A stretch of DNA of 64,000 nt, from NCBI GenBank assembly GCA_963733375.1, contig CAVTDB010000026.1, positions 288,001 through 352,000 on the forward strand, written 5' to 3'. How positions within the stretch are numbered: position 1 is the stretch's first letter; each line of letters opens with the position of its first letter. The notes under the pieces are model-generated. The model searched no databases. It was given only the letters and a program-made list of their open reading frames with translations, and was not told where the DNA came from. The DNA is from Nitrospirota bacterium. GTDB taxonomy: Bacteria > Nitrospirota > JACRHJ01. A program made the position numbers and the translations under genes. Of the stretch, positions 1 to 54,643 are shown in pieces.

Positions 1-167
1 TGGCAAACCTCCCTGCGCGGGCGAGGGAGTACGTAAGCAGGCTGGAAGAACTTTCCGGGGCGGCTTTTTCCATTATCTCGACAGGTCCGGACAGGGATGA
101 GACGATAATGCTGGAAAGCCCGTTCTCCTGGCGGCATGGAAGCAGGCTTGCGGGCAAATTGGCTTGA
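1..167 (+). CDS. purA: Adenylosuccinate synthetase, C-terminal end (partial)
   Basis: Manual translation of frame 3: [40 protein letters not shown], the typical PurA C-terminus; TGA at 165-167. Confidence 0.85.
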
Positions 168-210
168 CTTTCGCGTCTTCCTCTGGTATTTTTGCCGCCT
201 GCTTAATCGC

Positions 211-286
211 GGGCCGCTAGCTCATTTGGTAGAGCACCGCCCTTTTAAGGCGGGTGTGCTGGGTTCGAATCCCAGGCGGCTCACCA
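211..286 (+). tRNA. tRNA-Lys(UUU)
   Basis: Cloverleaf GGGCCGC...GCGGCTC-A-CCA, anticodon stem CCGCC/GGCGG around CTTTTAA, T-loop GTTCGAATC. Confidence 0.97.
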
Positions 287-295
287 GTACTATCA

Positions 296-328
296 AAGGG
301 GTTACGGATTTTCCGTAGCCCCTTTTTC
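296..328 (+). terminator. Hairpin/bidirectional terminator downstream of tRNA-Lys
   Basis: AAAGGGGTTACGG-ATTTT-CCGTAGCCCCTTTTT inverted repeat with T tail. Confidence 0.7.
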
Positions 329-432
329 GTCCACTGCGCCCCCTTCGCCTGAAACCCTTGGCCTGCTTGGCTTTAGAGCCCTTACCTTTTGTGAAGTCAA
401 GCAGTATCGAGGAGGCAAGGGGGATATCCCTG

Positions 433-2048
433 TTATTTTCCAGATGATTTTTCAACCACTTTTACCATGAATTTCGAAACCTCCCCGGCAGGCAGGGCAG
501 GACTCATTAAATAGCCCTGAATCTCGTCGCAGCCGCAATCCTTCAAAAATGACAACTGGTCCTCGGTCTCGACGCCTTCTGCGGTTACCACCAGATTCAG
601 ATTGTGCGCTAACACGATAATAGCCTTGATGATAGCTTCATCGCTCGGACTCATGGAGATGTTTTTTACAAAAGAAGTGTCGATCTTCAGGCAGTCGAGC
701 GGAATCTGGCTCAGGTGGTTCAGCGATGAATACCCCGTGCCGAAATCGTCAATGGAGATTTTAATGCCCATTCTCTTCAGCTTGTATAAAGTGGCAATAG
801 CTGATTTGGGATCACGCATGAGTGCGCTTTCGGTAATTTCCAATTTCAAATATTTAGGAGGCAGGTTGGCGTTGCGCAGCGCCCGGTCCACGGCCTCAGA
901 CAAGTTCGCCTGATCAAACTGTCGGTTGGAAAGATTCACCGATACCGCAATCGGCTCATATCCGGCCTCCTGCCAGGCCTTAACCTGCAAGCATGCCGTC
1001 TTCAGCACCCACTCGCCGATTGGTATGATAAGGCCGGTCTCCTCCGCGATGGTGATGAATTTCGACGGCAACACGAGGTCGCCATCGGGGGGATTCCAGC
1101 GCAGCAATGCTTCCACGCCGATTAGCTTTCTATCCGAAAGGGAGTGTATAGGCTGGTAGTAGACAAGGAACTCGTCATTCTTTACGGCCCGGTGCAGCCT
1201 GTCTTTTAAATTCTGATATTCAACAGCAGCGGACGTCATCGATTTAGAATAGAACTGGCAATTGTTTCTTCCTTTTGATTTGGCATGGTACATGGCGATA
1301 TCCGCGTTCTTGAGCAGCTCGTCCACGGTGGTCCCATCATTAGGGTAAAGTGATATTCCGACACTTGTGGTTATGAATACCTCGCGGCCGTCCAAAACAA
1401 TAGGCTCGGAAATGGCATTTAAGATGCGGCTGGCTATTTGATAGGCTTCCTTGGGATGGACAAGATTTTGCACCAGCAAGATGAATTCGTCCCCGCCCAG
1501 CCTCGACATGATATTTTCCGCCTGTACTCGTCCCCACGAGCGACATAATCGGAATTTCTTATCAGGTTGACAAGCTTATTGGTTACGGCTCGCAATAGCT
1601 TGTCGCCTTTATCGTGCCCCAGGGTATCGTTAATGCGCTTGAAATTATCCAGGTCAAGGAAGAGGACCGCCATGGTCAGTTCATGCCGGTCCGCATAGGC
1701 AATCGCATGCTCAAGGAGTTCCTTGAAAAACTGGCGGTTTGGCAGTTTTGTCAGGCTGTCGTAATAAGCCAGATAGCGGATTTGCTGTTCGGATTCCTTC
1801 CGGGTTTGCAGTTCCTGCTTTAGTCTGCTCATTTCGGAAACAAAAACTATCGTTATTCCGACCACTACCAAAGGCACCAATAACGCATCGCCAGCCCCGA
1901 TAACCAGTACTTTGTAAGGAACGTAGCCCCACCATAAATAGCTTTGTATGCAGGACGCTATAAAAGTGGCAATTTCGGATAAAAGTACCCCGATCCAGAG
2001 AAAGTGCCACGGGTTGATCTTTTTTATACTCTCAACTAACCGGCCCAT
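433..2048 (-). CDS. Membrane-anchored GGDEF-EAL diguanylate cyclase/phosphodiesterase (one indel near 1510-1530)
   Basis: Two TM helices, YDSLTKLPNR, DLDNFKRINDTLGH, SRLGGDEF, EALLRW, DDFGTGYSS; ORFs 1434..2048 and 433..1509 join. Confidence 0.93.
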
Positions 2049-2101: not shown

Positions 2102-3127
2102 CTATGTGAGCTCCGCGTCCAGTATATTGTCGAGATAGATACTGGGAAGCTTCTCCGGGACATAGGAATCCGAGTCGTCAACCCGCACCCACGCAAGCGT
2201 ATGGATCCCATAGGCCAGCTTTTCTTTCCTGCCGTAATTATCGACTTTAAAGTACTCAAAATAAAGGTCCATTCCGCACTCATAAACCCGGACCAGTTTC
2301 ATGGTAACACAGACACGGTCAAACGGCATCGCTTCGCGCAGGTGCTTGATGGAGGAATGAATGCATGCAAATTGTCCTTGCCTGTCCATCTTCCTGTATT
2401 TTTCGGGAGAAAGGTTGAACAGATATCTGTCCCGAAGATGCCCCTGCCACCTGAAATAGTTTGCGAAATAAATGTTCTGGGCGAGGTTGGAATGTTCCAT
2501 CGTGGTATTGATGACGCTTTCTTCGAGGACACCGTTATCCTCTCCGAGAATATCCGCCTCATAGAGCACTTTCCCGCTTCCGCCGTCGTAGGCCTTCCCG
2601 ACGCCGGCCGGCTCTTCATGCTTATCCGCAGGGTCTTCTTCGGGAAGCAGGTTTTCATCCCGCAGGAAGTCAGTAAAAAACTCCGGAGACGGGACAGGCT
2701 CCACAATGCCGTGGTCAACTACTCTGATCCAGGAGACCTCCTGCCTGCTGAATGCCATTCGCTTCATGGTTCCGCCGGGCGCTGTCTTGCCCCAGTCAAA
2801 ACTCAATACCAGCGATGAGCCGAATGCTTTCTCAATCCAAACCCGCGCATCGACCGTCTCGTGATTTCCGATACGGCCCGATATTTCGGTTTCGGTGAAG
2901 TTAGTAACCATGAAGTGGCCGTTATGAAACTCTTCGGCTATGTATTTGCCAATAGGCTTCAGGGCCGTTTCCCGCAACTTTCCAAGCCAGTTAAAATAAC
3001 TGGCGAAATAGACCCCGCCGCTAACCGTCGAGCTGTCTTTCAACACCAACGGGAACTGGAATGAGAGTATCTTCTGCCCTTGCGGGCCTCTGCCCGCGAT
3101 CGATTTCTCTGTGTTCTTTTGCGGCAA
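2102..3127 (-). CDS. Tandem (double) hot-dog acyl-thioesterase, enediyne E10/4HBT-like; probably the C-terminus of the upstream PKS
   Basis: Two repeats: DSSTVSGGVYFASYFNWLGKLRE and EHSNLAQNIYFANYFRWQGHLRD; overlaps the PKS ORF end by about 100 nt. Confidence 0.8.
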   Translation of the reverse strand: MPQKNTEKSIAGRGPQGQKILSFQFPLVLKDSSTVSGGVYFASYFNWLGKLRETALKPIGKYIAEEFHNGHFMVTNFTETEISGRIGNHETVDARVWIEKAFGSSLVLSFDWGKTAPGGTMKRMAFSRQEVSWIRVVDHGIVEPVPSPEFFTDFLRDENLLPEEDPADKHEEPAGVGKAYDGGSGKVLYEADILGEDNGVLEESVINTTMEHSNLAQNIYFANYFRWQGHLRDRYLFNLSPEKYRKMDRQGQFACIHSSIKHLREAMPFDRVCVTMKLVRVYECGMDLYFEYFKVDNYGRKEKLAYGIHTLAWVRVDDSDSYVPEKLPSIYLDNILDAELT

Positions 3128-6100
3128 CCACGGCTACCATACGCTCGCGGCCCCGCAGCAGCTGGACCGGGAATGTCAGGATGGTCAGGCCGCCGCCTTT
3201 AAATACCAGGCAGTCCTCTATCCGCTCGTCGTAGCGAAGGTCGTCCCCGTTCATCTCAGTCGCTTTCCGAAGGGCCTCCAGGGCGCACCAGATGCGGCTT
3301 CCTGCCATGTCTGCCGATTTATCCATGCCGGCCACGGTTTCAAATAGCGGCGCCCTCGTTTCCCCGAGCAGGTCTGTCCACTCCCCTGCGGTCCGGTGCG
3401 TCAGGGTCTCGATGTCGCATCCCTGCGCTCCCCGGCCTGCTGCGCACAGGCACACCCTGTCGTCGTGGCTGAACGACAGGCCGACCAAAACGGAGCCTTC
3501 TACAAAGGGCTTTCCCTCTTGCGTCCAGGCGATGGACGTCTCCCCGGGAAGGTTTTCACCGGCAGCCCCAAGCTTCCGGCAGACCTTTCCGAACAGCTTT
3601 TTCTCTTCGGCATGACGCTCCGTTTTCTTCATCCCGTGAAGTCCTGAGAGGTGTCTGACGGAGACCGCCGGAGTTGTCCTGCCTGTTTTCTGGGAATAAT
3701 GCCGGAGCAGGTTGTCGAGATGCAGTTCGTCCCAGTTATCCGGGTCTTGAAGGTCTGCCGGGCGAGGGGCGTCATTCACCCGCCCGATAATCTTTACCTT
3801 GTAGCCATGCAGCCTTTCGATAACCCGGCCTTCTGAATCGACCGCGGTTACGGCTGCGGTGACCGTTTCATCGTCCCTGTGCAGCAGGTCCAGTACGACC
3901 CTGTGTATCCCCTTGCCGGAGTATGAGGGGAATGTCTCCCATTTTTCTATTTCAACCGGCAGGGCAATCAGGTCGGGCAGTATTATCTGGACCGACTGCA
4001 GCAGCGTGTCCCTGAAGAACGGGTCTTCGGTAACGAAGCTCCCGGACGGGGCCGCCTCTGAATCAAAAACGCATTGGCTGTCGTTAAGAGACCGGACAGA
4101 CTTTATCCGCTGGAACATTCTCCCCTGGAAGAGCATATGGCCGTATAAGTCTTCCTCCGGCATTATGTCAAGGCGGGTTTCGGGAAGCTTGCCGGCATAT
4201 TGTTCCGCTTCTTTTCGCTTATTAAGGACGAACGTCGCTTCGAAATGGTTTTTTGAAAACCCGGTCTGGTCTACCGTTATGCCCGCTTTCACATGGATTG
4301 TCTCGTCCGCGGAATCCGCCTCTTCGACAAGTGCGCGGATATGGATTTCCGTCGGGTTATCCGCCTCGACCGCGATAGGGAGGGTCAGCTGGATATTCTC
4401 TACCTGCAGATAGCTGATATCGTGGATGCCCGTGACGGCCGAAACCGCCTGCGCCATGGCTTCGATGCCAAAAACGGTCGGGAACAGGTAGCTGCCCCTG
4501 AAAAGGTGGTCTTTCAGGTAGGGGTCAGCGTCCAGGGTCAGCGATACTTTTGTTTCTATCTCTATTCCCTTCTCGTAGTGAAGGACCTCTTCCAGGAAGC
4601 GCGAAGCCCGCGGTTTTGACACCTGGGGTCTCGGGATGGTATTGAGGCCTCCAAGCCTGCCCGAAACTATTATCTGTTTTTCCCCGGTCTCTTTTTCCAG
4701 GAGCTGCATGAAGCGCTCCACGCCCTTCTCCCGCGGTATGGGAAGGACGCCCATCTTCGACAGGAAATCCAGGCTTCCCATCCGTGCGCCCATCCCGACT
4801 TCGTCCCAGACGCTGAAGGCAAGGGTGATAACTTCGGCCCCGGTATCGGACCCGAACTGCTGCAGGAGGAGGTTCAACATCTCGTTCGAGAACCCGTACC
4901 ACGCGTTTCCCGCCATTCCCGTTACGCCTATAATAGACCCGAACCCGGCAAAAAGTTTAATCGGGTCGTCTTTAAGGCTGTCGCATATATTTATCGCGCC
5001 TATTAGTTTAGGCGCAATTTCCCGAAGCGCCGCGCCCGGGTCAATCTGTTCAAGGCGGCGCGGCCTGTTGAGCGCGGCCCCGTGAATGACGCCGGTGATT
5101 TTGCCCAGGTCCTTTTCCACCTGTTTTTTGAGGTCGACAACGGCCGCCTTATCCGAGACGTCGCACGGGTAGTAGCGAAAAACCGTCCCGCTTTCCCTGT
5201 AGCGTTCCAGGACGTTCTCTATCTCTTCATCCTTGTGTATTAAGACCGTGCTTCCGGCTATGGCAAGCTTGACCCCATATTTCTTTGCGAACGCAAGGGC
5301 GCATTCCGCGGTAATCCCCCTGGCGCCTCCCGTAACCAGGACCACATCATCGGCCGTCCATCGGGTTTTTCTTTCCCTGTAGTCCCTGGGGTCGCTGACC
5401 TCCAGCATGGGGACATGCCGCTTAAGGCCGCGGTCGAATGACGCTACGGCGAATTCTTCCCCGGCATGGAGCTCTTGCAGTATCTCCTGCAGGATACGGG
5501 TCTGCGTCCCCCGTTTCATTAAACTCCAGTACCCGAATCCTCTCCTTCATGTTTTCAAGATAAACGCTGCAGAGAAAGGCGGCGCTCCCTTTCGCTTCCA
5601 TGGAGACGCCGGAGCCGCATTCATAAAAACCGCCGCTCCCGAACTGCACGACCGCGTACTCCGGTTTAGTGGCCGTCTTCATCGAAGTGATGACTTTCCC
5701 GATGCAGCTTAAACGCGACACCATGCTCGTAACGGACTCACGGGTCAGCGGGCCCGCACCCTTCTTCCCTGAAGGAAGCAGGAAAATAAAGGACTGGTAC
5801 TTTGCATAATCATCCGCCGCAAGGTTATAAAGACTGCCGTAATCAATGGATGACGCGGCGATTTTATTCCGTATCAGAATATTTTCCATTTCGGAGGCGA
5901 GACCGTCAGTCTCATCGACGGAGACGAGCAGCATATGCTTTTTTTCTTCGGAGGTTTTTTCAAAAATCGCCTTGAAAGACTGCGAAGACGGGCGCGGCCG
6001 CTCCTCATAGGCGACTTTAAAATTTCGGACCCAGTTATCGGACTTATTAATTGCCGCTGTTTCCTGGGGCCGAACTTCCCCCGTCTCGTCCGGGGTATCG

Positions 6101-9100
6101 ATAACGCTTTTAATCCGGTCATAGATCTCCCGCATCGAGCTGTTCGCCATGGCCGTGGGGTCAATCTGTTTGCCTTCCGCGTTGTACAGCCTCAAAGCCC
6201 TGACCGCGAACTGCCCGGCCTTGATGGAGTCCAGGTTCAGGTCGTCGAGCAGGCGGTGGTCCATGGATATCGAGTCCACGGGAAAGCCCGTCATTTCCGA
6301 TGCAAGCTTCAAAAGCAGTTCCGGGGCAGCCGCATTTTGCGGAGCTAACGGCATTTCATGCAGGGGGCCGTCCGTTTTTCCGGTTGCGGCGGCGGGAACA
6401 TCCTTAAGGACGATACCCTGCGCCTCGGTCTGTATCAGCCCGCGTATGTAATCTATCTGCTGTCTTGTAAAGAGCCCGGCCGCGTCGTCCGGGCCCAGTG
6501 AGGGGACCAGGGCCGGCCCGATTTCGCGTATGACGACAGAACTCATCAAGGTTTCTTCTTCCGCGGGGACAGAGGAGTGTTCACACTGGTTTTCAATGAA
6601 GAAACGCTTTGAAGCCGGGACAAACGGCCTTACCAGCCGGTTCTCGAAAAGGGCTGTCCAGTTGACTTCGCCTCCGCGTACGAAGTAGCAACCGAGGAAG
6701 ACGTTCAGGGAACGCATGTCTCCCGCTTTCGATTCGACGGGAAGGCAAACCGGCTCATCCGTACCCGCAATGGAATTGGCCAGGTCGGACAAGACGCGGC
6801 CCGGACCTACTTCTACCAGCAGGTCGCATTCCCTCCTCATGTTATTTATCAAGGATATGAAATCTACCGGATGGGTTACCTGCCTTGAAAAATGCCGCTT
6901 AGTGTCGGTCCCGGGACTAACCTCGCTGCCGTCCATCGAAGTCAGCAATTTAATGTCCGTTCCGCTAAGGACATCCGGGATTGGCGCATATCTGAATAAT
7001 TTATCTGCCGCCCCGGCCATCAGCCGCGAATGGAAGGCGTTCGAAACCGGCAGGTATTTCGTTTTTATGTTCGCGAGCGACGCCCGCTTCACCGCTTCCT
7101 CAACCGCCAGCCTCTCGCCGGATACCACTGTTTGAGCGGGGCTGTTGATGTTCGCTATGGTGATGTAGCCTGCGATGTCCCCCAGCAGTTCTTCGGTTTT
7201 CTCCCGGTCGCAGGCGAAGCTGGCCATTGTCCCCGCGTTGTCTTCGGATGCGGAGGTCGCCCTACCCCGGAACGCCGCAAAATCAAGCAGTGTTTCGTCA
7301 TCGAACGCGCCTGCCGCGCGGAATGCCGTCAACTCGCCCAGGCTATGGCCGGCTGCAACGACCGGCCTGATACCCAGGTTCTCCATATGCCGGATCCACA
7401 AGAGCGAAGTCATGCATAAGGCCGGCTGCGCGATATCCGAACGGGACAGTGACTGACGCCACCCGTCCAGCTGGCTATTGTCAATGGCGCGGTCAACCGG
7501 CCGGTAGATATGCTCGTAAATGTTCTCAAATCCTTTTTCCGCCAGCCGCGTTTCGGCCTTCTTCCGGAGTTCCCTGGCCCACCCGTAGCGTTCCGTGATG
7601 ATCCGCCCCATATTCAGTTGCTGAGACCCCTGCCCCGGAAACAGGAAGCCGATGCGTGCGCGCGATACCGTATTTCCAACCCATATATCCTGATGCGGGT
7701 CGAAAGCCGTCCCGCCTTTTGGAATGTCGCCAGCCTTCAGCATCTGCTCCGCGCGGCCAAGACAACTCGACGAGAGCTGCGGGTGCCCCGGCAACCAGGG
7801 CAACCCGAAAATGTTTACCGGCCGGGAGTTCCCGGGTAAGTTCCTTGGACAGGTCTACCATCTCGCCGGTGCTTATCCCCAGGGCGACGCCCTTCAACTG
7901 GGCTATGCGGGCGAGCATTTCCTGCTGCGTCCCGGCGGACAGGACAAAAAGCTCAGTCTCCTGGTACGACGCAAGCAGCTCCCTTTCGCCGATGGAGGGC
8001 CTTATCTGCTCCGCGGGCTCCCCGGCGGACTCGACGGTAACATGGCAGTTAATCCCCCCGAACCCCATGCCCGATACCCCGGCGCGGATGGTGGCGTCCG
8101 CGTTCCGTACCTCGCCCTCTATGACGGGATATATGCCGCGCGCCTTCTCGTTGAATATCGGGTTCGGCTCGCTGCAGCCGGCGGTGGGCGGGATGACGCG
8201 CCTGTTTACCGCCATGACGGCCTTTATGAAGCCGCCTATACCCGAGGCGGCCTTGGTATGCCCGATAAGCGACTTGAGCGACGTGATGCCCAGGGGCCGC
8301 AGAGTTTCCGGGTTGCCACCTTCCATGGCGCTCGCGATACCCTCCAACTCGGCTTTATCGCCTGCGGTAGTGCCTGTCCCGTGGCCCTCGATAAAATCTA
8401 CAGAGTCAAGTCCATACCCTGCCTTGCCGTACGCCCGCCGAATCGCGAGGGCCTGGGTCAGCGCCTTCGGGGCCGTCATGCCGCCCTTGCCGTCGGAGGA
8501 CAACCCCCAGCCCCGGAGGATGGCGTATATATAATCCCCGGCGGCCCGGGCGTCCTGCAGCCTCTTCAATATGACAAACCCGGCCCCTTCGCCAGGAATG
8601 AATCCGCTGGCGCGGCGGTCGTACACCCTCATGTCTTCCCTGGTCAGGGCGTTTGTCTTGGCAAAGCCTATAAGCTCGAAGGTATCGAGGCTGATGTCTA
8701 TCCCTCCCGCTACCGCGAGGTCGAGAGTGCCGGCGGAGAGGGCGTTAGCGGCGGTGGCCACCGCGATGAGAGACGAGGAACAGGCCCCGTCCACAGTGTA
8801 CCCGCCGCCATGCATGTCGAGGAAATTGCAGATTCTGCCGGCAATGGTGTTGGAGAGGTTTCCGGCCAGGGTGTCCTCGGTGATGGGGGCGAAAGCGGAT
8901 TTGTACGACGTCTCCATGCTGCCCAGCAACTCGTCGATGACGGCGGTAGGCAGCCCTTTCTGGGTAGCGGTAGAGGTAAAGACTTTTTTCACGTAGGGCC
9001 AGCGCAGACGCATCTGCTGCGACCGGCTCTGTTCGCCCGTCATGGTGTTCCCGAGGATGACCCCCGAACGGTCGGACGGGATGCTCTGGCGGGTTAAGCC

Positions 9101-9742
9101 CGCGTCTTCCAGGGCCCTGAGCGCGACCTCAAGCGCCAGCCAGTGGACTATATCCGAAGAATCCACGACGGTCTTCGGGATGCCGCGCTTTACCCAGTCA
9201 AACTCGAACCCGTCGATCACCGCCGCACGGTCCCCGTAGGTCTTGTCGGATACGGAGGGGTCCGGGTCGTAATATTCGGAAAGCGGCAGGCGCTGCTCGG
9301 GGATCCGGCGGAACGCTCTTTTTCGGGCAAGTATGTTTTCCCAGAACGATTTTAAGTCCGCGGCGCCAGGGTAATAGCAGGACATGCCTATTACGGCGAT
9401 AGCATCGTGGGATATTTCGGTCTTTATCTTGTAATAAGAAGATTTGTAGAATTTACTGAATTCGGGGGGTGGATTTATTATCTTCAGGCCCATCTCTCTC
9501 AAGGAATTCCCGGCCCGCTTGTCGGTCCATGCCACCTCGCATGACAGTGCCAGGTCTTCTCCCTGCGGGACAGTGAATTTTACTGTCAGCGCCGTTGCAT
9601 TTTCGATAAGGTCTTTCGAATCCGTAATTACATACAAACCTTTTTCTGAAATGCCTACAATGAAAGCCTTAGAGGTCTTATTGCCCCAAATGACGTCGAC
9701 TTCAAAATTGACGGGTATCCTCAGTGTGGTTCGTCTTTCCAT
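3021..9742 (-). CDS. Iterative type I PKS of the enediyne PKSE type with N-terminal PilZ domain: PilZ-KS-AT-ACP-KR-DH-PPTase (indels near 7750 and 5500)
   Basis: KS DGACSSSL/EGHGTGT/GHTKAASG and PKSE-like GNTMTGEQSRSQQMRLRWPYV; AT GHSLGE, NAFHS; ACP LLDDLNLDSI; KR TGGARGIT; DH YLKDHLFRGSYLFP; PPTase SFSHD..GCDIE..RIWCALEALRK. Confidence 0.9.
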
Positions 9743-9835
9743 TTGGTACGCCTCTAGTCGTTAGATGTCGCAACGCAGTTTTTTCAGCATCCGGCTCCAG
9801 TGAAGCAGGGGCGTAGCCGACTGAAAAATCAGTTA

Positions 9836-9865
9836 ATAATAATCTAATTTATAAGCATTAGTCAA
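9836..9865 (-). promoter_or_regulatory. Putative sigma70 promoter of the PKS operon
   Basis: Minus strand TTGACT-18 nt-TATTAT about 95 nt upstream of the PKS start. Confidence 0.45.
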
Positions 9866-10002: not shown

Positions 10003-10404
10003 ATGGTGGAAAATAAGGATAAAAAACTAAAAATGACTCCGCAGAGGGCGGCAATTTTAAAATACATGGACGGAAATAAGTCCCATCCGTCAGCGGAGGC
10101 GATTTATGAGGCCGTCCGCAAAAAATACCCCATGATCTCCTTCACCACCGTCTATAACACGCTCCAGACGCTGAAAGACTTGGACCGGGTATGGGAACTG
10201 AACATCGACGACGAGAGGAAGCGCTACGACCCGAACACCAATCTTCACCACCACCTGATATGCAACAAGTGTAAAAAGATAGTGGATATACACATGGATT
10301 TTCCGCTGGAAGTCCCGGAGGAGCTTGCGCAGGGCTATATGGTAAACGGACGGCACGTGGAATTCTATGGACTCTGCCCCAAGTGCCGTAAGACGCGAGG
10401 CTGA
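10003..10404 (+). CDS. Fur-family regulator, PerR-like
   Basis: MTPQRAAIL, HPSAE, TVYNTL, HHHLICNKC, CPKC; adjacent to rubrerythrin and cydAB. Confidence 0.9.
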   Translation: MVENKDKKLKMTPQRAAILKYMDGNKSHPSAEAIYEAVRKKYPMISFTTVYNTLQTLKDLDRVWELNIDDERKRYDPNTNLHHHLICNKCKKIVDIHMDFPLEVPEELAQGYMVNGRHVEFYGLCPKCRKTRG

Positions 10405-10514
10405 ATATATGCGGAAAGTAGTAAAGAGGCGGCGCAATTTTGCAAAACCCCCGCCCGAGTGCACACTCAGGCGCGGCAACATTAACCAGGCACATGAAAC
10501 CAGGGAGGGTGAAG

Positions 10515-10934
10515 ATGGAGATAATAAACGAACACAAGCTGGGTGTGGCAAAAGGGACTGCTGTGGAGCAGGATGTAGATATGAACTTCAAAGGTGAGAC
10601 CGCCGAGGTCGGGCTTTACCTGGCCATGGCGCGGGTGGCGCAGAGGGAAGGCTATCCGGAGGTCGCGGGTACGCTTAAGACCATCGCATGGGAAGAGGCG
10701 GAGCACGCGGCGCATTTTGCCGAGATGAACGGGCTTGTGTCGGAGAGCACCAGGGAGAATATCGAGCGGATGATAAAGGGTGAGATCGGCGCCAATAACG
10801 GCAAGAAGGCCGCGGCGAAAAAGGCCAAGGAAAACGATATAGACCCGGCGCACGATTTCTTCGACGAGTCCTCAAGGGACGAGGCGCGTCACGCAAGGAT
10901 GCTCCAGGGCGTGCTCGACCGTTACTTCAAATAA
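10515..10934 (+). CDS. Rubrerythrin/ferritin-like di-iron protein
   Basis: [32 protein letters not shown] motifs; RBS GGAGG. Confidence 0.88.
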
Positions 10935-10944
10935 CAGTCAAAAC

Positions 10945-11043
10945 CTTTCTTTTCTTTTGCGGAAAAGAAAAGAAACAAAAGAAAATGGGGCTTTTAAGTC
11001 CGGCTTTCTTTTGGTACTTTTCTTTCACCCGAAAGAAAAGTAC
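10945..11043. repeat. Inverted pair of REP-like palindromic elements (TTTCTTTGGTTACTTTCTTT...AAAGAAAGTAAC family)
   Basis: Two hairpin units in opposite orientation; a third copy at 48797-48834. Confidence 0.7.
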
Positions 11044-11093
11044 GGTTAAGATTTCTGCTATATTATTGAATATTACCCTTACGGAGGTGGCTG

Positions 11094-12392
11094 GTGGATA
11101 CCGCACTTCTCTCCCGCATTCAGTTCGGGCTTACGGCTGGTTTCCATTTCATTTTCCCGCCCCTGACCATCGGATGGCATGGCTGATCTTCTACATGAAG
11201 TCGGCATACCTGAAGACCGGGGACGAGAACTACTGGCGGATGTCGCGCTTCTGGACACGCATATTCGCCATAGGTTTCGTGGTCGGCGTCGCGACCGGAA
11301 TCACTATGGAGTTCCAGTTCGGCACGAACTGGGCGACCTATTCCCGGTACGTGGGCGACGTCTTCGGCGCGCCTCTCGCGGCGGAGGTGATATTCTCCTT
11401 CTTCCTCGAGTCGTTCTTCCTTGCGCTGCTGGTATTCGGGGAGAAACGGGTCTCGAAGAAGGCGCTCTGGTTCGCGTCCCTGATGGTCGCGTTCGGCTCG
11501 ACCCTTTCGGCGTTCTGGATAATAGTCGCGGGCTCATGGATGCAGACCCCCGCCGGGTATGAGATAGTGAACGGCAAGGCGCACCTGGTCAATTTCTGGG
11601 CCGCGCTATTCAACCCTTCGACGCTCCCGCGCTTCACGCACGTCATAATTGCCGCGTTAATCACAGGCTCGTTCTTCGTGATGGGCATAAGCGCCTGGCT
11701 CCTCAAGAATAAGAAGAGCGTCCAGCTGGCAAAAAAATCACTCGCCGTCGCGCTCGTTACCGCGGCGTTCTTCTCCGTCGTCCAGCTTCCGGCGGGTCAT
11801 CTCCACATGTTGGAGGTCGTCCATACTCAGCCGGTAAAACTCGCCGCATTCGAAGCCTTATATAAAACGACGGCCGGCGCGCCGCTTTGCGTCATCGGCA
11901 TACCGGGCAGTTAATGGCCTCACGGCCAGGATAGAGATACCGAACATGTTGAGCTACCTCGCATACGGGGATTTTCACGCGGTAGTGAAGGGGCTCGACT
12001 GCGTGCCGTCGTCCGATTGGCCGCCTATTGCCACGACCTTCCTTACCTTCAGGGGGATGGTGGTCCTTGGGACGTACATGCTGCTCCTGACGCTCATCGG
12101 GTTATATCTTCTGGCGCGCGGGAAGCTCTTTGACAGCCCCCGGTTCCTGAGCTTCGCCCTTTATTCCATACCCGTGCCGATTATCGCGAACGAGATGGGC
12201 TGGGTCTCGGCGGAGATGGGACGTCAGCCCTGGATCGTGCAGGGGCTTATAAGGACGAAAATGGCGTTTTCACCCGTCGTCCCGGCGGGGGACGTGCTGT
12301 TCTCGATAATCCTCCTCGTGGCCGTCTATGCGATGCTCTTTTCGGTATGGATTTATCTCGTGAAGCGCGAAATGGGAAAGGAGGCCCTGTGA
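11094..12392 (+). CDS. cydA: Cytochrome bd ubiquinol oxidase subunit I (two indels)
   Basis: GTG start [27 protein letters not shown]; [16 protein letters not shown]; QPVKLAAFE; EMGRQPWIV. Confidence 0.93.
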
Positions 12393-13405
12393 TGTTTACA
12401 CTTCAGACGATATGGTTCCTCCTTCTCGCGGTGCTGTTTATCGGTTATGCGGTGCTCGACGGTTTCGACCTCGGAGTGGGGGTACTCAGCGTACTGGCGA
12501 AAGACGATAACGAACGGGGCAGGATGGTGGCCGCCGTGGGTCCTTTCTGGGACGGGAACGAGGTATGGCTTTTAACCGGCGGCGGCGCGATATTCGCGGC
12601 GTTCCCGGATGTCTACGCGACGGTTTTTTCCGGGTTCTACCTTGCGTTGATGCTGTTACTGGTCGCAATCATCCTGCGCGCGGTCTCGGTCGAGTTCTGG
12701 AGCAAGGTGGACAGCCCCGGCTGGCGGAAGGCCTGGGGGTTCGGGTTTTTTCTAGGCAGCCTGCTCCCGGCAATCCTTCTGGGCGTTGCCTTCGGGAACA
12801 TCCTGCACGGCGTGCCCGTGGACTCCACTAAAGAATACGCCGGCACCTTCTTTACGCTCCTGAACCCGTACTCGGTACTGGTCGGGGTCCTCTCTCTTGT
12901 GATGTTCATGATGCACGGGGCGCTGTACTTAACGCTCAGGACCGACGGCGAGCTCAAGGCGAAGGCAATCAAATGGGCAGGCATGGGATGGGCGGCATTC
13001 GTCGCGCTGTATGTATTGGTGACGGCGCTGACCGCGGTTTTCGCGGGCAAGATGTTCGCCCGTTACCTGGAGAGCCCGCTGCCCTGGATACTGGTTGTCG
13101 TAGCGGTGGCCGCGATAGTCGCGATAAAGCTTTTCCTGAATAAGGAGCTGGTGGGAAAGGCCTTCATAGCGTCGTCCTTGACGATAGCGTCGCTTATCGG
13201 CGTGGCCGCTGTCGGCCTCTTCCCCAATCTCGTGCCGTCAACCCTCGACCCGGCATACAGCCTGACAGCGATGAACTCGTCCAACTCGCAGCTGACGCTC
13301 ACGGTGATGCTCATACTGGTGGCAATCGGCGTCCCGATCATGCTCATCTACACGGCGTACATTTACCATTGCTTCCGGGGCAAGTCCGAGGCTGGAGAGT
13401 ATTAA
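12392..13405 (+). CDS. cydB: Cytochrome bd ubiquinol oxidase subunit II
   Basis: LDGFDLGVG, GPFWDGNEVWL motifs. Confidence 0.95.
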   Translation: MFTLQTIWFLLLAVLFIGYAVLDGFDLGVGVLSVLAKDDNERGRMVAAVGPFWDGNEVWLLTGGGAIFAAFPDVYATVFSGFYLALMLLLVAIILRAVSVEFWSKVDSPGWRKAWGFGFFLGSLLPAILLGVAFGNILHGVPVDSTKEYAGTFFTLLNPYSVLVGVLSLVMFMMHGALYLTLRTDGELKAKAIKWAGMGWAAFVALYVLVTALTAVFAGKMFARYLESPLPWILVVVAVAAIVAIKLFLNKELVGKAFIASSLTIASLIGVAAVGLFPNLVPSTLDPAYSLTAMNSSNSQLTLTVMLILVAIGVPIMLIYTAYIYHCFRGKSEAGEY

Positions 13406-24707: not shown

Positions 24708-27700
24708 ATGCGCTTCCACAAGCTGGAAATGACAGGTTTTAAATCCTTTTCGGACAAGACATCCGTCACCTTCGAGCGCGGCATGACCGCCGTGGTGGGG
24801 CCGAACGGGTGCGGGAAGAGCAACATCTCCGACGCCATACGCTGGGTGCTTGGCGAGAAGAGCGCCAAGAACATGCGCGGCGAAAAGATGGAGGACGTGA
24901 TCTTCAACGGGACCGAGGTGCGCAAAGCCACCGGGATGGCGGAGGTGAACCTTACGCTTCAGGACGTGGAGGGCGCGGACTCGCTGGGGTTCTCGGAGTT
25001 CAAGGAGATAACCATCACCCGCAGGCTGTACAGGAGCGGGGAGAGCGAGTACCTGATCAACAAGATACAGTGCCGCCTGAAAGACATCCGCGACCTGCTG
25101 ATGGATACCGGCGTCGGTTCCAGGGCGTATTCTATAATCGAGCAGGGAAAGATCGGCCAGCTTATAACGAGCAAGCCGGAGGAACGCCGCTTCATAATCG
25201 AAGAGGTCGCGGGGATAACGAAATACAAATCCCGCAAGAACGAGGCGTTATCGAAGCTGAAAGAGACCGAAGACAACTTAAGCCGCGTGAGCGACATAAT
25301 CCACGAGGTGAAGCGTCAGATAGGCTCGCTGGACAGGCAGGCGAAGAAGGCGGAGCGGTACAAAAAGCTCTCGTCGGAGCTTCGCGGCCTGGAACTCAAG
25401 ATGTCGTGGGACGACTACAACGCGCTCCTTGCAAAAAGCCAGGAGGTGGAGGAAGAGCACGAGAGGCTTGCTTCCCTGCAGTCGGCGGCGAAGAACTCGG
25501 TCTCGGCAAGGGAGGCGGACCTCTCCGAGGCGAGGCTCCAGCTTGTGGAGAAAGAGCGCTCGTTGATGGAGCATCAGCGCGAGGTCCATCGGCTGGAGTC
25601 CGAGGTGAGCCGGCTGGAGGCGCGCGCGGAAGTGGCGGCAAACCAGCTGAAGAACCTGGACGAGCGCGAGGAGCGCAGGCTTTCCGAGATGGGCCAGCTT
25701 AAAGTCGAGGAAGAAGACCTCCACCAGCAGGCGTCGTCTCTCAGGGAAGAGGAGCAGGCGCTTAAATCGGAGCTCGACGGCCTTCGTTCCGAGCTTCAGT
25801 CTCTTGAGGCCGAGTACCAGGAAAAGACCGACGGGGCGCACGCGCTTGAGCAGGAGATAGAGCATGGGCGGGTCCGGCTTTTCGATATGCAGGCGGGCCT
25901 TTCTAAGCAACCAGAACGTCCTCACGAGGCTGGAAGAGCGAAGGGCCGCGCTGGAAGCCCGCTCCGCGAGGGCGCTAGAGGAGAGGCGGGAGACGGAGGA
26001 AAACCTGTCCGCCGCCAAGCTTGCGGCAGAGAAGAAGAGGATGGAACTGGAGGCGGCCCGGTCTTCAAATAACGAACTCGAAGCCGAACGCGGCAGTCTG
26101 TCCGCTAAAGTGGACGAGACGCGCGCCTCGTTAAAAGGGCTTTCAGACGAGTTGGCCATTGGCAGGGAACAGCTCTCCCAGAAGTCGAACAGGCTGAAAT
26201 CCCTGAAAGAGCTGGAAGAGGGGCTGGAAGGGTTTGACGCGGGCGTGAAGGCCGTTGATATCCGAGAACAAGCGCGGCGCGCTTCCCGGTATCAGGGGGC
26301 TGGTCGCGGATATTCTTTCCGCAAGCCCGGAGCATGAGCGCGCGATCGAGGCGGTGCTTGGCGAGAGGCTCCAGAATATAATCGTCGGCGGCCACGACGA
26401 CGCGAAATCCGCGATTGAATTCCTCAAAGCGCGCGGCGCGGGCAGGGGGAGCTTTCTACCCGCGTTGCCGAAGGTCTTTTCCTGCTCGGAAGCTCCTGCG
26501 GGAGAAGGAATAATCGGCCCGGCGCTTTCGCTCTCGAATGTAAAGGACGGATACGAAGATATTCTAAAGAGCCTCCTGGGGCAAGTGCTGGTCGTCCGGG
26601 ACCTGGACGCCGCATTCTCAATCTGGGAGCAGGGCGCGGACTGGACGCTGGTTACGCTGGACGGAGAAGTGGTGGAACCTTCCGGCGCGGTTACCGGCGG
26701 GGCGGGCGGCTCGGGCGGGATACTTTCCAAGAAGCGCGAGATACGCGAACTGACCGAGGAAGTGGAGAGTCTTTCCCGGAGCAACCAGGCGGCCGAGGAC
26801 AGGCTTTCCGAGTCTAAGGCCCTGATGGAAGAACTGGAAGGGAAGCTGAAGGGGCTTCATGAGATTATAAATGAAAAGCGCGTTACCTTGGTAGGGCTGG
26901 AGAAGGACGCGGCGTCTCTGGCCGCTGAGACTTGAGCGGATAACGAAGAAGCTGGAAGTGCTGGACATCGAAGCGTCCCAGCGCTACCCAGGAAGAAGAT
27001 GAAATAAGAGAATCCCAGGTCAAAGCGCGCGCGGCCCTCGAAGAACTGGGCGAGAAGAAAAATAATGCGGAATCCGCGCTTTTTGCCGTGCAGGAAAATC
27101 TCAAGGCCGCTAAATCACAACTTGAGAGAGACCGGGAGGCGCTGACGGCGAAGAAGATGGACCTCTCGGCGCTTATCCAGAAGCACGAGTCATGGGCGCG
27201 TGATTTGAAACGGGCGGACCTTAAAAAAGAAGAGCTGGAACGAAGACGGACACGCCTTGAGGAAGAGGGACGCGAGATATCCGAGAAAAAAGATGAGTTG
27301 TCCAAAGGCCGCGCGGAAGCGGAAGGCAGCATCAATTCGTTTTTGACCGAGGCGATGGCGATGAAGGAGCAGGCGCCCGCGCTCCAGGATGCATACCAGA
27401 CCGCAAACGACGCCATAGAAGGCTTGGAAGAGTCGTTGAAATCGACCCGCCGGGAAGCCGAAGCGGCGCGGGACGCGTTAGGCGAGATCGAGCTTAAGCG
27501 CGCGGAACTGAAGCTGAAAGCCGAGCACCTGCTTGAGACCGTGGAGCATAACTACCACATCCGGATACCGGAGATAGAGGAAGAGTTCAAGGCGCTGGAG
27601 ATAGAGCGCGAGCAGGCGGAGATGGATGCGGCGGAGCTTAAGATAAAGCTTGAAAAACTCGGGCCGGTGAATGTCGGCGCGATAGAGGAATATAACGAGC

Positions 27701-28284
27701 TGATGGAGCGCTTCGAGTTCCTGAGTTCCCAGAAGCAGGACCTGGAGTCGTCGGTCTCGCGGCTTCGGGAGGCCATCGGCAAGATAAATAAAACTTCCGA
27801 AGAGCTTTTCACGGAGGCGTTCAACTCCATCAACGAGACTTTTAAAACGGTATTCCTCTCACTATTCGGCGGAGGACGCGCTGAGCTCGTACTCGTGCCG
27901 CCGGAGGAGGGAAACGACGTGCTGGATTCCGGCCTTGAGATTGTCGCCCAGCCGCCCGGAAAGAAGCTCCAGAGCCTGCTCCTGTTCTCCGGCGGCGAGA
28001 AGGCGCTTATAGCCGCCGCGCTGACGTTCGCATGTTTCCTCGTGAAGCCCTCGCCGTTCTGCGTCCTGGACGAGGTGGACGCGCCGCTTGACGAAGGCAA
28101 CGTAACGCGTTTCGGAAACCTGCTGAAAGAGTTCGCGGACAAGACCCAGTTCATCGTCATCACCCACAGCCGCCCCACGATGGAGCTTGCGGACGCGCTC
28201 TACGGCGTCACGATGGACGAGCCGGGCGTGTCGCGCCTCGTATCCGTCCGCCTCACGGAAGCGGCGGAACTGGCAGGGGTGTAA
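24708..28284 (+). CDS. smc: Chromosome segregation protein SMC (several indels)
   Basis: GFKSF, GPNGCGKSN, hinge region, FSGGEK, LDEVDAPLD. Confidence 0.96.
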
Positions 28285-41708: not shown

Positions 41709-42708
41709 ATGAAGATAGCGGTAATAGGCGCGGGGGCAATCGGGTGCGTGGCGGGGGCGCTTCTCCATGAGAAGGGCCACGCGGTTACCCTTGTTAGCCG
41801 CGACCCGCGCCAGGTCCGGGCGATTAACCGCGAAGGCCTGTCGCTTGACGGCATTTCGGCAAGGAATAATTTTGTCATATATGCCGCAAGGTCGCTGGAG
41901 TTCATTCCCGACCTGGCGCTCCTCGCGGTAAAGACGCAGGACCTGGAGACGGCATGCAACCAGATTGCGGGCATGGGCGATTTCCCGGCGCTGACGATGC
42001 AGAACGGCCTGATGGCCGACGAGATAGCCGGAAGCATCCTTGGCAGGGAGCGGATCATTTCGTCGGTCGTCATGTTCGGGGCGACATATAAAGAGCCGGG
42101 GCATGTAACGTATAACTTTCCCGGCGGCCTCGTTATAGGCAAGGCGTTCGGCCCGGACGGCGGCGGCATCGTAGAGAAGGCGAAGAATATGATGTCCGGG
42201 TCTTTAGAGGTGCGCGTAGCCGAAAACATCCAGGCCATGCACCGCGCGAAGCTGATACTGAACTTAAATAACGCGCTTGCCTGCGTACTGGGGAAGAGCC
42301 TGCAGGATACGTTTTCGGATAAACGGTATGTGCATATTGGGGCTGTCGATGATGCGCGAAGCATGGGAGGTTTTCGAATCCAGCGGGATGGAGATGGCCG
42401 ACCTCCCGAACCTGCCTCTGGAGAAATTGAAATCTCTGCTATACGCCCCGGAGGAAGTAGGGGCGCAGATTTACGGCAATATCATGCGGGGCCTTTCCCA
42501 CCTCCCCCTTCTCGGCTCCGTCCTGCAGAGCGTCATGCGGGGCCGCGCGTCGGAGGTGGATTATTTAAACGGCGAAGTCGCGAGGGCGGCTGGGAAGATG
42601 GGGCGGGAGGCAAAGTTGAATTCAAAGGCGGCGGAGCTGGTCAAGGAAATCGAAAATATAAATCAATTTCTATCAATCGAAGAGATGCTAGCGAGGTTCG
42701 GCTTATGA
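41709..42708 (+). CDS. Ketopantoate reductase (PanE/ApbA)-like protein (one indel)
   Basis: GAGAIG, AVKTQD, MQNG, KLILN, SVLQS, EVDYLNGEV. Confidence 0.85.
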
Positions 42709-42968
42709 TGGAGTTTCCGGGTTTTCTGCTGACGGTGGACAGTCTTCAAAAAGAATGTTTCAAGGGATATAAAGTGGGTGATTCTTTTGAGGTAAAGGAC
42801 TTCGTGACGCCGCCCGACGGCTTCTGCGCCGGGGCGTATCATTCGCTCTTCCCGGTCATTTATGCCTGGACATTCGGCGCGGAATTCCCTTTCAAGGACG
42901 GGGAAGGGTGCGTCAGGACGACATGCCCGGACGGCGGGAAACTGACGTTCAAGGTGAGGAAATTATAA
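42705..42968 (+). CDS. TIGR04076-family small Cys protein (copy 1)
   Basis: ECFKGYKVGD, GFCAGAYHSLFP, TCPDG. Confidence 0.75.
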   Translation: MMEFPGFLLTVDSLQKECFKGYKVGDSFEVKDFVTPPDGFCAGAYHSLFPVIYAWTFGAEFPFKDGEGCVRTTCPDGGKLTFKVRKL

Positions 42969-43237
42969 TGGCTAATCCCAAAAAAATGGTCATATCGGTC
43001 GAGGAAGTTTCCGGGCCGTGTTTTTATAAATACGAGCAGGGACAGGAGGTGGAGGTCCTGGGACTTCGGACGCCGGAAGGTTTCTGCGGCGCGGCGTACC
43101 ATACGCTGTTCCCCGTGCTCTTCGCCCTGAACTTCGGCGCGAAGTACCCCTTCATGGAAGACCCGAATTCCATCAACACCGTGACCTGCCCGGACGGCGG
43201 GTACGTGCGGTTCAAGGTCAGGAGGGTGGAGGGTTGA
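42968..43237 (+). CDS. TIGR04076-family small Cys protein (copy 2)
   Basis: GPCFYKYEQG, GFCGAAYHTLFP, TCPDG. Confidence 0.75.
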   Translation: MANPKKMVISVEEVSGPCFYKYEQGQEVEVLGLRTPEGFCGAAYHTLFPVLFALNFGAKYPFMEDPNSINTVTCPDGGYVRFKVRRVEG

Positions 43238-44491
43238 ATCTCCGCAGGGTCGTCATAACAGGCCTGGGCGTCATCGCGCCGGGAGGCATCGGTAAAGACG
43301 CCTTCTGGGATTCCATGATAAACGCGCGGACGCAGACCGGGCTTATTACCGCATTCGATACCTCCGGGTTCCTTTCGAAGGTCGCGGCGGAAGTGAAGGG
43401 GTTCAACCCTGCCGCCTTCGGCATCTCATATGAAGAGGCCTCGGGGATGGACCGCTATCTGCAGTTCGCCCTGGCCGGGGCGAAACTGGCCGTGGAGGAC
43501 GCCGGGCTGGAATTCGGCGGCCTGGACGGAGAAAAGTGCGGAGTGGCGCTGGCTAACGCCATATGCGGGACGAAATGGATGGAGGAGGAGTTCCTGCGCG
43601 TTACCGGCAACGGACATGGGCCGATCGACCCGGCCCTCGCGTCGCCGTATCTGTACGATGCGTCCATATTCAATTCTCCCGCCAACTTCATAGCCGCGCG
43701 CTATGGCTTGAAAGGCGGGGCGTGCGTCATATCCACCGGCTGCACGGCCGGGACGGACTCGGTCGCCTATGCGTATGAAAATATCCAACTCGGTTTATGC
43801 GACATGATGATAACCGGCGCGTCCGAGGCCCCGATTACGCCGATAGCCCTTGCCGCATTCGACGTGATAAAGGCGCTCTCGAAGCATAACGACGAGCCCG
43901 GGGCGGCGTCCCGTCCTTTCGACAGGACGAGGAACGGGTTTGTCCTGGCCGAGGGCGCGGGGATACTGGTACTGGAGGAATACGGGCACGCGGTGAAGCG
44001 CGGAGCGAAGATATACGCGGAGATAGCGGGTTTCGGCTCCACGTCCAACGCATTTCACATGACGGATCTGCCGAAGGACGGCGAAGCCCTGGCCCGGTCA
44101 ATAAAAATGGCTATGGACGAGGCGCGGGTCAATGCCGACGACGTGGATTACATAAGCTCTCATGGAAGCTCCACGGAACAGAACGACGTCTTCGAGACGA
44201 ACGCGATAAAGACGGCGCTTGGGGAACATGCCTGGCGGGTGCCTGTCAGTTCCATTAAGATCCATGATAGGACATCCGCTTTCCGCGGCGAACTCCATCG
44301 AGCTTGCGCTTTCGGCGATGGTGATGGAGCGGGGCGTAATCCCGCCGACAGTGAATTACCGTGAGCCGGACCCTGCATGCGACTTCGATTATGTGCCAAA
44401 CGTGGCGCGGGATAAAAAGGTGGACGTGGTGATAAAAACGAGCAGCGGGTTCTCCGGGATCCATTCGTCAATGGTCTTGAGGCGGGCATGA
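43234..44491 (+). CDS. Aromatic type II PKS ketosynthase alpha (one indel)
   Basis: STGCTAGTDS, SRPFDRTRNGFVLAEG, HGSSTEQND, SMIGHPLS; KS-alpha-like MEEEFLRVTGNG insert. Confidence 0.9.
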
Positions 44492-45694: not shown

Positions 45695-45708
45695 GGTAAG
45701 GGGTAAAG

Positions 45709-45946
45709 ATGACGGTAGAAGAGAGGGTCGAAAAAGTTTTCGAGGAAATAGGCATAGACAAAGCTGAACTTCGTCCGGAAGTCGACTTTGAAAAGCGATC
45801 TCGGGATTGACTCGACGGAGATGGTGGAACTGATGGTCGCGCTGGAAAAAGAATTCTCGGCCAAAATCCCCAACGGCGTGATAAACGGCGGGAGCACGGT
45901 CCGCGAGATAATCGACTATTTTCTAACCGTGGCGGCCAGGTCTTGA
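45709..45946 (+). CDS. Acyl carrier protein (one indel; absent from the ORF track)
   Basis: Manual translation MTVEERVEKVFEEIG...DLGIDSTEMVELMVALEKEF...STVREIIDY. Confidence 0.85.
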
Positions 45947-46713: not shown

Positions 46714-46723
46714 AGGAAAAATA

Positions 46724-50052: not shown

Positions 50053-50054
50053 CA

Positions 50055-51416: not shown

Positions 51417-51489
51417 AATCTCGAAAGGAGGCGAATGGGGTTAGCCGAGTTTTTATTTATTAACCTGATTATCTGACAGGAGGAATGCA

Positions 51490-52080: not shown

Positions 52081-52116
52081 AGGCCGCACAAGTCCCGGCA
52101 TTCTGGAGTATAAGGT

Positions 52117-54572: not shown

Positions 54573-54643
54573 TCCTTGACTTAGTGCCCCTTGTTTTGTC
54601 AAAATTACGTACTCTGCAATCGTAGTGGGAGGTTGAAGCGGCA

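Follow-up and report, generated by a model that had tools for sequence, protein, structure and literature searches.

Can an iterative polyketide synthase (PKS) be controlled directly by a second messenger that it binds itself? The question is raised by a gene in a 64,000-nucleotide stretch of DNA from a Nitrospirota bacterium (assembly GCA_963733375.1, contig CAVTDB010000026.1, positions 288,001 to 352,000; hereafter the window). From the DNA letters, an original prediction had proposed for this gene a PilZ domain, the receptor module for cyclic di-GMP (c-di-GMP), fused to a synthase of the type used in enediyne biosynthesis (PKSE). We followed up this prediction computationally. The domains occur in the order PilZ, ketosynthase (KS), acyltransferase (AT), acyl carrier protein (ACP), ketoreductase (KR), dehydratase (DH) and phosphopantetheinyl transferase (PPTase), followed by a fused tandem hot-dog thioesterase. 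We lean, with some reserve, towards reading the product as one functional, self-priming megasynthase that makes a polyene and is gated by c-di-GMP through its N-terminal PilZ domain, together with a neighbouring GGDEF-EAL protein. The gene and its parts are located as follows.

2102..9742, minus strand: the whole PilZ-PKSE-like gene, about 2,545 codons with three +1 frame breaks read through; four collinear tblastn segments to the homologue P0001
9464..9739, minus strand: PilZ domain, residues 2-93, with R4xxxR8 and G30-I-S-E-K-G35; Pfam PF07238 at 34.4 bits (cut-off 22.5), structural model, Foldseek
9392..9466, minus strand: long C-terminal helix of the PilZ domain, residues 93-117, running straight into the first KS strand, Y99 invariant; model and alignment
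8177..9403, minus strand: ketosynthase, residues 114-522; Pfam PF00109 and PF02801, 51% identity to the Streptomyces PKSE KS, tree
6808..7647, minus strand: acyltransferase (GHSLG); Pfam PF00698, best solved relative the DynE8 AT (4amn, E 2.6e-30)
6115..6318, minus strand: single ACP (LDSIK); weak Pfam PP-binding match, E 0.0038
4800..5342, minus strand: ketoreductase; Pfam PF08659, E 4.3e-24
3771..4547, minus strand: PKS dehydratase; Pfam PF21089 and PF14765, HxxxGxxxxP present in the translation
3075..3719, minus strand: integrated Sfp-type PPTase region; 26-homologue profile, Sfp (1qr0) at E 0.0033
2105..3073, minus strand: fused tandem hot-dog thioesterase of the CalE7/SgcE10/DynE7 type; CalE7 (2w3x) at E 1.6e-13 for the second half, double hot-dog model

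The predicted coordinates (2102-9742) agree exactly with the list of open reading frames (ORFs), in which four minus-strand pieces tile the gene (9742-7526, 7803-5422, 5519-3021 and 3127-2102). Pfam assigns PilZ and KS to the first piece, AT and a weak PP-binding match to the second, KR and both halves of the DH to the third and a weak 4HBT_2 match to the fourth. The first piece is an uninterrupted frame of 738 codons running from the ATG at 9742 through PilZ into KS, which bears out the claim that no stop separates the two domains. The junction is also bridged without a gap by two pieces of relatives' metagenomic contigs, X4-30 (9319-9613) and X2-15 (9409-9743).

By comparison with relatives, the PilZ-KS fusion is real and conserved. 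A homologous PilZ domain stands at the very N-terminus in 47 of the best 120 homologue clusters (1,293-3,690 amino acids), three of the 47 being N-terminally truncated. The PilZ-bearing PKSs are monophyletic in our KS tree (15 rows plus the window; support by the approximate likelihood ratio test, SH-aLRT, of 100). According to record titles, the PilZ-bearing loci belong to Nitrospirota (Nitrospiraceae, Dissulfurispiraceae, Thermodesulfovibrionales, Ca. Sulfobium) and to Desulfobulbaceae/Desulfobulbales. PilZ-less relatives from cyanobacteria, Thermoactinomycetaceae, Myxococcota, Planctomycetota and other groups have their start a few residues ahead of the KS strand AIAVIGM. We looked for a vestigial PilZ domain in those cyanobacterial homologues that match from query residues 70-82, and none has one. 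Of 400 other genomes sampled from the phylum, 10 have the synthase; six of the 10 carry the PilZ part, and four of these six have intact ORFs (2594, at least 2579, 2609 and 2635 amino acids). The synthase was not found in the 11 genomes of the window's own family. Where databases name the homologues at all, they call them 'enediyne polyketide synthase' (JGI) or 'SDR family oxidoreductase'. The statement in the original prediction that no PilZ-PKS fusion had been described holds for the literature that we searched, subscription journals and supplements lying outside that search, and the terms polyketide, ketoacyl and PKS do not occur in the main text of the PilZ surveys examined. The fusion is nevertheless not unique, as at least 47 public protein clusters contain it.

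Is the gene intact in this organism? Two indels had been noted in it; a three-frame reading against P0001 places three.

7764..7765, minus strand: frame break 1, one extra T in GAGTTGTC; base omitted at 7764 (run X1) and 7767 (X4)
5497..5501, minus strand: frame break 2, one extra base in GACCCG; base omitted at 5497 (X1) and 5501 (X2, X3, X4)
3097..3118, minus strand: frame break 3, in the variable linker between PPTase and thioesterase; X1 omits 7 nucleotides (nt), X2 and X3 swap 20 nt for 58 nt

Each break is a +1 offset by the ORF start coordinates. P0001, an intact protein of 2579 amino acids whose single ORF holds PilZ, KS, AT, KR, DH and 4HBT_2, is collinear with the window in four segments (residues 1-663, 647-1419, 1372-2213 and 2242-2564), with 92% identity over the first; the intact single ORFs of relatives span 2,500-2,640 amino acids overall. 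To check the breaks we used relatives' contigs from four public soil and peat runs (X1-X4) of four studies, 14 of the 19 X1 pieces being at least 95% alike to the window. The extra bases are missing at break 1 in both covering runs, at break 2 in all four and at break 3 in all three, where the variants of X1, X2 and X3 each restore one frame; the remaining listed indels are net multiples of 3 (3921, 3923, 3926 and +15 at 4053). Other genes in the window (GGDEF-EAL, CydA, SMC, HemN-like) are split as well, their pieces matching consecutive parts of one Pfam profile, a pattern that suggests an indel-prone assembly; the source genome is a bin of 26 contigs, 81% complete. Because relatives' contigs lack the extra bases, other window genes are split and relatives have intact ORFs, the three breaks in the PKS are most likely assembly errors.

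A true pseudogene, inactivated in this organism by three frameshifts, would account for three +1 breaks within 7.6 kb, and the locus is rearranged around this lineage, with the GGDEF-EAL gene downstream here instead of upstream and an integrase fragment upstream of the PKS in the closest relative (L127). Against such inactivation, no ORF piece contains a stop or signs of decay, the catalytic motifs of the PKS are all intact, and one near-identical contig (X1 record 2, 0 substitutions against the window) is without the extra base. Moreover, the housekeeping genes SMC and CydA are split likewise, which points to assembly error; we therefore regard a pseudogene as very improbable. Frame breaks are generally frequent in conserved genes of the window, for example at 10985-12392, 24708-28284 and 57902-59102 (CydA, SMC in three pieces, a HemN-like radical SAM protein, amine oxidases).

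The catalytic inventory that had been predicted downstream of the KS was recovered in the same order: Pfam finds AT, a weak PP-binding match, KR and PS-DH. The translation contains the KS signatures DGACSSS, EGHGTGT and GHTKAASG together with GHSLG (AT), LDSIK (ACP), TGGARGI (KR) and HLFRGSYLFP (DH), and in the homologue P0042 the ACP region reaches 32.3 bits with the Pfam PP-binding family. In a search of solved structures with the KS, DynE8 was not among the best 60 matches; the DynE8 entries that were matched are chains of about 400-420 amino acids aligning with the AT region. For the PPTase, no Pfam family matched 3021-3749 at E ≤0.01. When the profile of 26 homologues was compared with solved structures, all 12 matches were PPTases of the Sfp/AcpS kind, and the integrated PPTase of the original prediction, and with it the proposed self-priming, is supported by this region. 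The sequence AGAGG lies 8 nt 5' of the PKS ATG.

On the hot-dog thioesterase the original prediction needs a correction: the 2102-3127 piece is no separate gene but belongs to the same protein, and it is fused in all intact relatives. A partner thioesterase of the E10 type (SgcE10/CalE7/DynE7) is thus present, fused rather than separate. Among solved structures, its second half is closest in sequence to CalE7, the 'ACP-polyene thioesterase' 4i4j and DynE7, and the Streptomyces E10 protein matches both halves (E 1.8e-13 and 1.8e-7). The model of the region (predicted local distance difference test score, pLDDT, 84.9; predicted template modelling score, pTM, 0.84) is a double hot-dog, and its best full-length structural matches are tandem hot-dog acyl-ACP thioesterases. 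N19, Y29 and R37 of CalE7, which we take to be important residues of that enzyme, have N, Y and R as their aligned counterparts in the second half, and the first-half arginine equivalent to the latter is invariant in the homologue alignment.

To place the enzyme among related synthases, we compared it with PKSEs from three Streptomyces plasmid loci that carry the cassette DUF1702, UnbV/CRTAC1, UnbU, PKS and thioesterase. A Streptomyces PKSE of 1984 amino acids from such an E3/E4/E5/E/E10 cassette is collinear with the window protein over its residues 4-1933, in agreement with the predicted PKSE architecture. The window KS shares 73-81% identity with PilZ-bearing and 62-70% with PilZ-less relatives, 51% with the Streptomyces PKSEs (n=3), 35-36% with four PfaA/HglE KSs passing TIGR02813 and 29-35% with the modular KSs in the tree. 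The tree itself, a quick IQ-TREE search over 49 rows with one FabF outgroup (L003, L004 and L112 were dropped, their matches being shorter than 300 residues), joins PKSE and PKSE-like KSs in one clade (SH-aLRT 99). The window KS accordingly groups with PKSE and not with PfaA, as the original prediction implied, but it lies beside the three sampled actinomycete PKSEs and not inside them, the non-cassette group being sister to the Streptomyces sequences (98).

Likeness to PKSE extends beyond the KS: the KS-AT-ACP-KR-DH-PPTase order is that of SgcE/SgcE10, CalE8/CalE7 and DynE8/DynE7, the window AT is nearest to DynE8 and the thioesterase nearest to CalE7, SgcE10 and DynE7. Unlike these systems, the window enzyme adds an N-terminal PilZ domain, its thioesterase is duplicated and fused, the E3 and E5 partners were not found, and the clade to which it belongs, sister to theirs, spans Nitrospirota, Desulfobulbaceae, cyanobacteria and other phyla. 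With the PilZ-less PKSE-like PKSs it shares the clade, the PPTase region and, in many of them, the tandem hot-dog end; these differ in lacking PilZ, in having a full GGDEF-EAL gene nearby at only one of 58 genome loci and in DUF1702 neighbours at seven. A PksE-like iterative PKS was noted in Microcystis PCC 7806 in 2008 (PMC2442094).

Could the gene then be the core of a true enediyne pathway? Its architecture and KS clade are those of PKSE, and homologues bear the enediyne name in JGI records. According to PMC5181780, however, every known enediyne cluster has E3/E4/E5/E/E10, and the original prediction had already remarked on the absence of E3, E4 and E5 genes. In tblastn searches of the 81%-complete genome with one Streptomyces query each, homologues of E3 and E5 were not found and E4 gave one weak partial match (E 2.7e-5); neither E4 nor E5 was found in 80 related genome loci, and no tailoring genes are conserved around the PKS. 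With the cassette not found by the queries used, we rejected the idea of an enediyne maker, and a genuine enediyne pathway appears extremely improbable. The enzyme is, from its sequence, PKSE-like in build and ancestry and not part of an enediyne pathway. Separately, a DUF1702 (E3-like) protein with 30-35% identity to its Streptomyces counterpart lies near a cyanobacterial PilZ-less PKSE-like gene at seven loci (L039, L042, L052, L056, L060, L073 and L083), none of which has E4 or E5.

The product is, by analogy, most likely a linear conjugated polyene, because PKSE and E10 alone give a heptaene in E. coli (PMC9682884). Alternatively, the PKSE likeness could reflect common ancestry only, and the enzyme could be a lipid synthase of the polyunsaturated fatty acid or heterocyst-glycolipid kind, or make something other than a polyene, for instance a long envelope lipid with hydroxy or keto groups. 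This alternative draws on the best NCBIfam match, omega_3_PfaA (TIGR02813, 312 bits), on the resemblance of the double hot-dog model to acyl-ACP thioesterases of fatty-acid metabolism, and on a CrtI-like amine oxidase that is fused or adjoining in some relatives and suggests further chain modification. Like PfaA and HglE, the enzyme is of the iterative type I KS-AT-ACP-KR-DH kind. The PfaA score, however, falls far short of the cut-off of 1010, and the KS is parted from the four cut-off-passing PfaA/HglE KSs by branches with support of 98-99; on these two grounds identity with PfaA was rejected. The single ACP in place of tandem ACPs, the lack of an enoyl reductase or FabA-type DH by Pfam, the added PPTase and a thioesterase closest in sequence to the polyene-releasing CalE7 and SgcE10 likewise set the enzyme apart, and such a lipid synthase seems improbable to us.

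If the enzyme is a polyene synthase, is its PilZ domain a c-di-GMP receptor? In the preprint by Galperin and Chou (10.1101/814665), the canonical PilZ core is described as a six-stranded barrel followed by one long helix. Six strands and the helix 93-117 are present in the model of the window PilZ, for which 21 sequences were used (pLDDT 76.9), and the modelled fold is canonical. Foldseek ranks other PilZ domains highest, the majority of them from structures with c-di-GMP (PlzA, VCA0042, MapZ, BcsA, MotI, YcgR, Alg44 and PP4397). R4, R8, S32, G35, C68 and Y99 are invariant in all 21 PKS PilZ sequences. The motifs had been read correctly in the original prediction: R4xxxR8 is present, and the second motif, G30-I-S32-E-K-G35, has G for D/N, with its hydrophobic residue, S and G kept. 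Across the 21 sequences the D/N position is N in seven, D in three, S in five, G in five and E in one. A search with residues 1-112 against 1.84 billion representatives gave 166 matches at E ≤0.001, the nearest being stand-alone proteins of about 105-120 amino acids; the only match of PKS length was P0020. In the model the PilZ helix ends at the KS start, which would make it a rigid connection that could pass the effect of ligand binding on to the KS.

The original prediction made no mention of a c-di-GMP enzyme next to the PKS. Such a gene begins 53 nt past the PKS stop on the same strand.

433..2048, minus strand: membrane GGDEF-EAL gene, split once near 1506-1527; Pfam GGDEF positions 1-78 and 77-161 plus EAL, catalytic motifs intact

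This gene is the orthologue (59-60% identity) of a gene that adjoins the PKS in relatives. With the G008 protein as query (orthologues 50-62% identical over about 530 residues), we located it upstream of the PKS, in opposite orientation, at 13 of 22 PilZ-bearing genome loci (L016-L021, L024-L027, L029, L032 and L035). The nine loci without it comprise four with less than 810 nt of upstream flank, four of Desulfobulbaceae/Desulfobulbales and L093; among the 14 non-Desulfobulbales PilZ-bearing loci whose upstream flank exceeds 2 kb, it adjoins the PKS in 13. Among the PilZ-less genome loci a full-length GGDEF-EAL homologue occurs at one of 58 (L066, 42%), with partial GGDEF matches at two. PilZ is present in 19 of the 80 metagenome loci, nine of which have GGDEF-EAL upstream, and L129 has the first 50 residues of the gene at the contig edge; the 61 PilZ-less metagenome loci gave long GGDEF-EAL matches in L193 and L165 and a partial one in L191. 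When ORFs from 23 PilZ-bearing loci were clustered, only the PKS and GGDEF-EAL proved widely common, the next family occurring in three loci. The orthologues examined all keep GGDEF, EAL, DDFGTG, the KxD site and EGVE, and their hydrophobic N-terminus is probably a two-helix membrane segment. The window's own genome encodes only four GGDEF genes and seven PilZ domains. The linkage gives independent genomic support to the putative, and plausible, c-di-GMP control of the PKS. At L132 (79% protein identity), a GAF-GGDEF gene (625-1659, minus strand) replaces GGDEF-EAL upstream of the PilZ-PKS, with a response regulator beyond it (2-406, plus strand).

Several observations weigh against the proposed c-di-GMP-gated synthase. 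At the D/N position of the [D/N]hSxxG motif, the window and 4 of 20 relatives (L016, L020, L021 and L032) have G, and N or D occupies it in 130 of 138 short stand-alone PilZ relatives; G30 is therefore, on this alignment, a derived change, and c-di-GMP binding may be weak or lost in this sublineage. The synthase could then be real while its PilZ domain serves as a non-binding structural or protein-docking module, with c-di-GMP control lost or indirect. A TIGR02266 match below the cut-off (30.1 against 68.7 bits) fits such a module, and the Galperin and Chou preprint states that some PilZ domains without the motifs cannot bind (10.1101/814665). We nonetheless consider it unlikely, given the retained RxxxR and the h, S and G of the second motif, the canonical modelled fold, and the GGDEF-EAL neighbour with its catalytic motifs at the very loci that carry G30 (L016, L020, L021, L032 and the window), which would be hard to explain if the signal went unread. 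Further points concern the linkage, which may partly reflect shared descent in one Nitrospirota clade. Several metagenome loci are probably duplicates of genome loci, to judge by their equal identity values, and so are not independent, and no c-di-GMP gene occurs within the flanks covered at the four Desulfobulbaceae/Desulfobulbales loci or at L093, L116, L122, L124 and L178. As to the synthase, its ACP gave a weak match and its PPTase is supported at E 0.0033; the absence of the frame breaks was seen only in relatives 90-99% alike; and the tree is a quick search with only three actinomycete PKSEs, all from Streptomyces plasmids.

The gated synthase would have its nearest functional parallels in BcsA cellulose synthase and the alginate protein Alg44, in which a canonical PilZ domain is likewise part of a biosynthetic machine and whose PilZ structures are both among the fold matches. 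The output of both is under post-translational c-di-GMP control. They differ in being membrane glycosyltransferase systems that make exopolysaccharide, whereas the window PilZ stands N-terminal to a soluble thiotemplate megasynthase with a predicted lipid-like polyketide product.

The wider surroundings of the gene contain further features of interest, the first of them directly upstream.

9836..9865, minus strand: promoter-like site TTGACT-18-TATTAT upstream of the PKS; consensus scan, 10 of 12 matches, a pattern match only

Divergent from the PKS, at 10003-13405 on the plus strand, lie genes for a PerR-like Fur-family regulator, rubrerythrin and cytochrome bd oxidase (CydA, split, and CydB), so that an oxidative-stress gene set adjoins the putative polyene synthase. 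In L127, the closest relative (93.5% nucleotide identity), homology to the window ends 139 nt upstream of the PKS start, and the C-terminal part of what by eye looks like a tyrosine recombinase (L127 1-518) stands where the window has the PerR gene; by this comparison the PKS locus is rearranged, and it may be mobile. A second lipid or polyketide cluster lies at 41709-55450 (plus strand), with a KPR-like reductase, two FabF-like KS genes (43234-44364 and 44630-45694), a cyclase, an SRPBCC polyketide cyclase, an FMN reductase/amidohydrolase, split CrtI-like amine oxidases, a radical SAM protein and an LpxL-like acyltransferase; its B12-binding radical SAM protein scores 333 bits with TIGR04072 ('rSAM_ladder_B12, lipid biosynthesis'), against a cut-off of 360. 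A further FabF-like KS pair beside two amine-oxidase homologues, resembling the cluster at 43-51 kb of the window, is found elsewhere in the same genome (G000 contig C8, 38797-50208). In seven homologues (P0031 and P0041-P0046, 3,100-3,220 amino acids), a CrtI-like flavin amine oxidase is fused after the thioesterase, and a CrtI-like amine oxidase gene adjoins the PilZ-PKS in L027 (8277-9788) and L030 (19464-20936). Such fusions and neighbours may hint, in the Rosetta-stone sense, that the chain is further desaturated or oxidised; as a general partner the amine oxidase was rejected, being only sporadic and not linked in the window's genome.

For the mechanism we propose that the enzyme, a member of a PKSE-like iterative type I PKS clade that occurs mostly outside actinomycetes and is sister to the sampled enediyne PKSEs, would prime its own ACP through the integrated PPTase, build a conjugated polyene from malonyl units and release it by its own CalE7/SgcE10-type thioesterase. 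The precedent of PKSE and E10 suggests a linear, heptaene-like hydrocarbon or ketone as the product. In this scheme c-di-GMP would be made or removed by the membrane GGDEF-EAL protein next door; the PilZ domain, whose own long helix connects it to the KS, would sense the messenger and thereby gate chain building. That c-di-GMP gates the iterative polyene synthase directly through PilZ, and that PKS and dedicated GGDEF-EAL form a portable two-gene 'signal-to-polyene' module, is a bolder proposal, which we put forward tentatively as a serious possibility.

Exopolysaccharide synthases are known to be gated directly through PilZ, and to our knowledge the known c-di-GMP control of polyketide and lipid synthesis goes through transcription factors. 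If the proposal is right, the enzyme would be the first polyketide megasynthase to contain its own second-messenger receptor, and direct second-messenger gating would extend to thiotemplate megasynthases. The conserved GGDEF-EAL partner would offer a ready test case for local c-di-GMP signalling, and a single-polypeptide polyene route with its own PPTase, thioesterase and possible switch would be attractive for heterologous expression. The comparison also identifies a widespread PKSE-like clade outside enediyne producers, whose products have, as far as we know, so far not been characterised. For the anaerobic Nitrospirota themselves, direct gating would tie the sessile or biofilm state to the making of a conjugated, possibly antioxidant, lipid.

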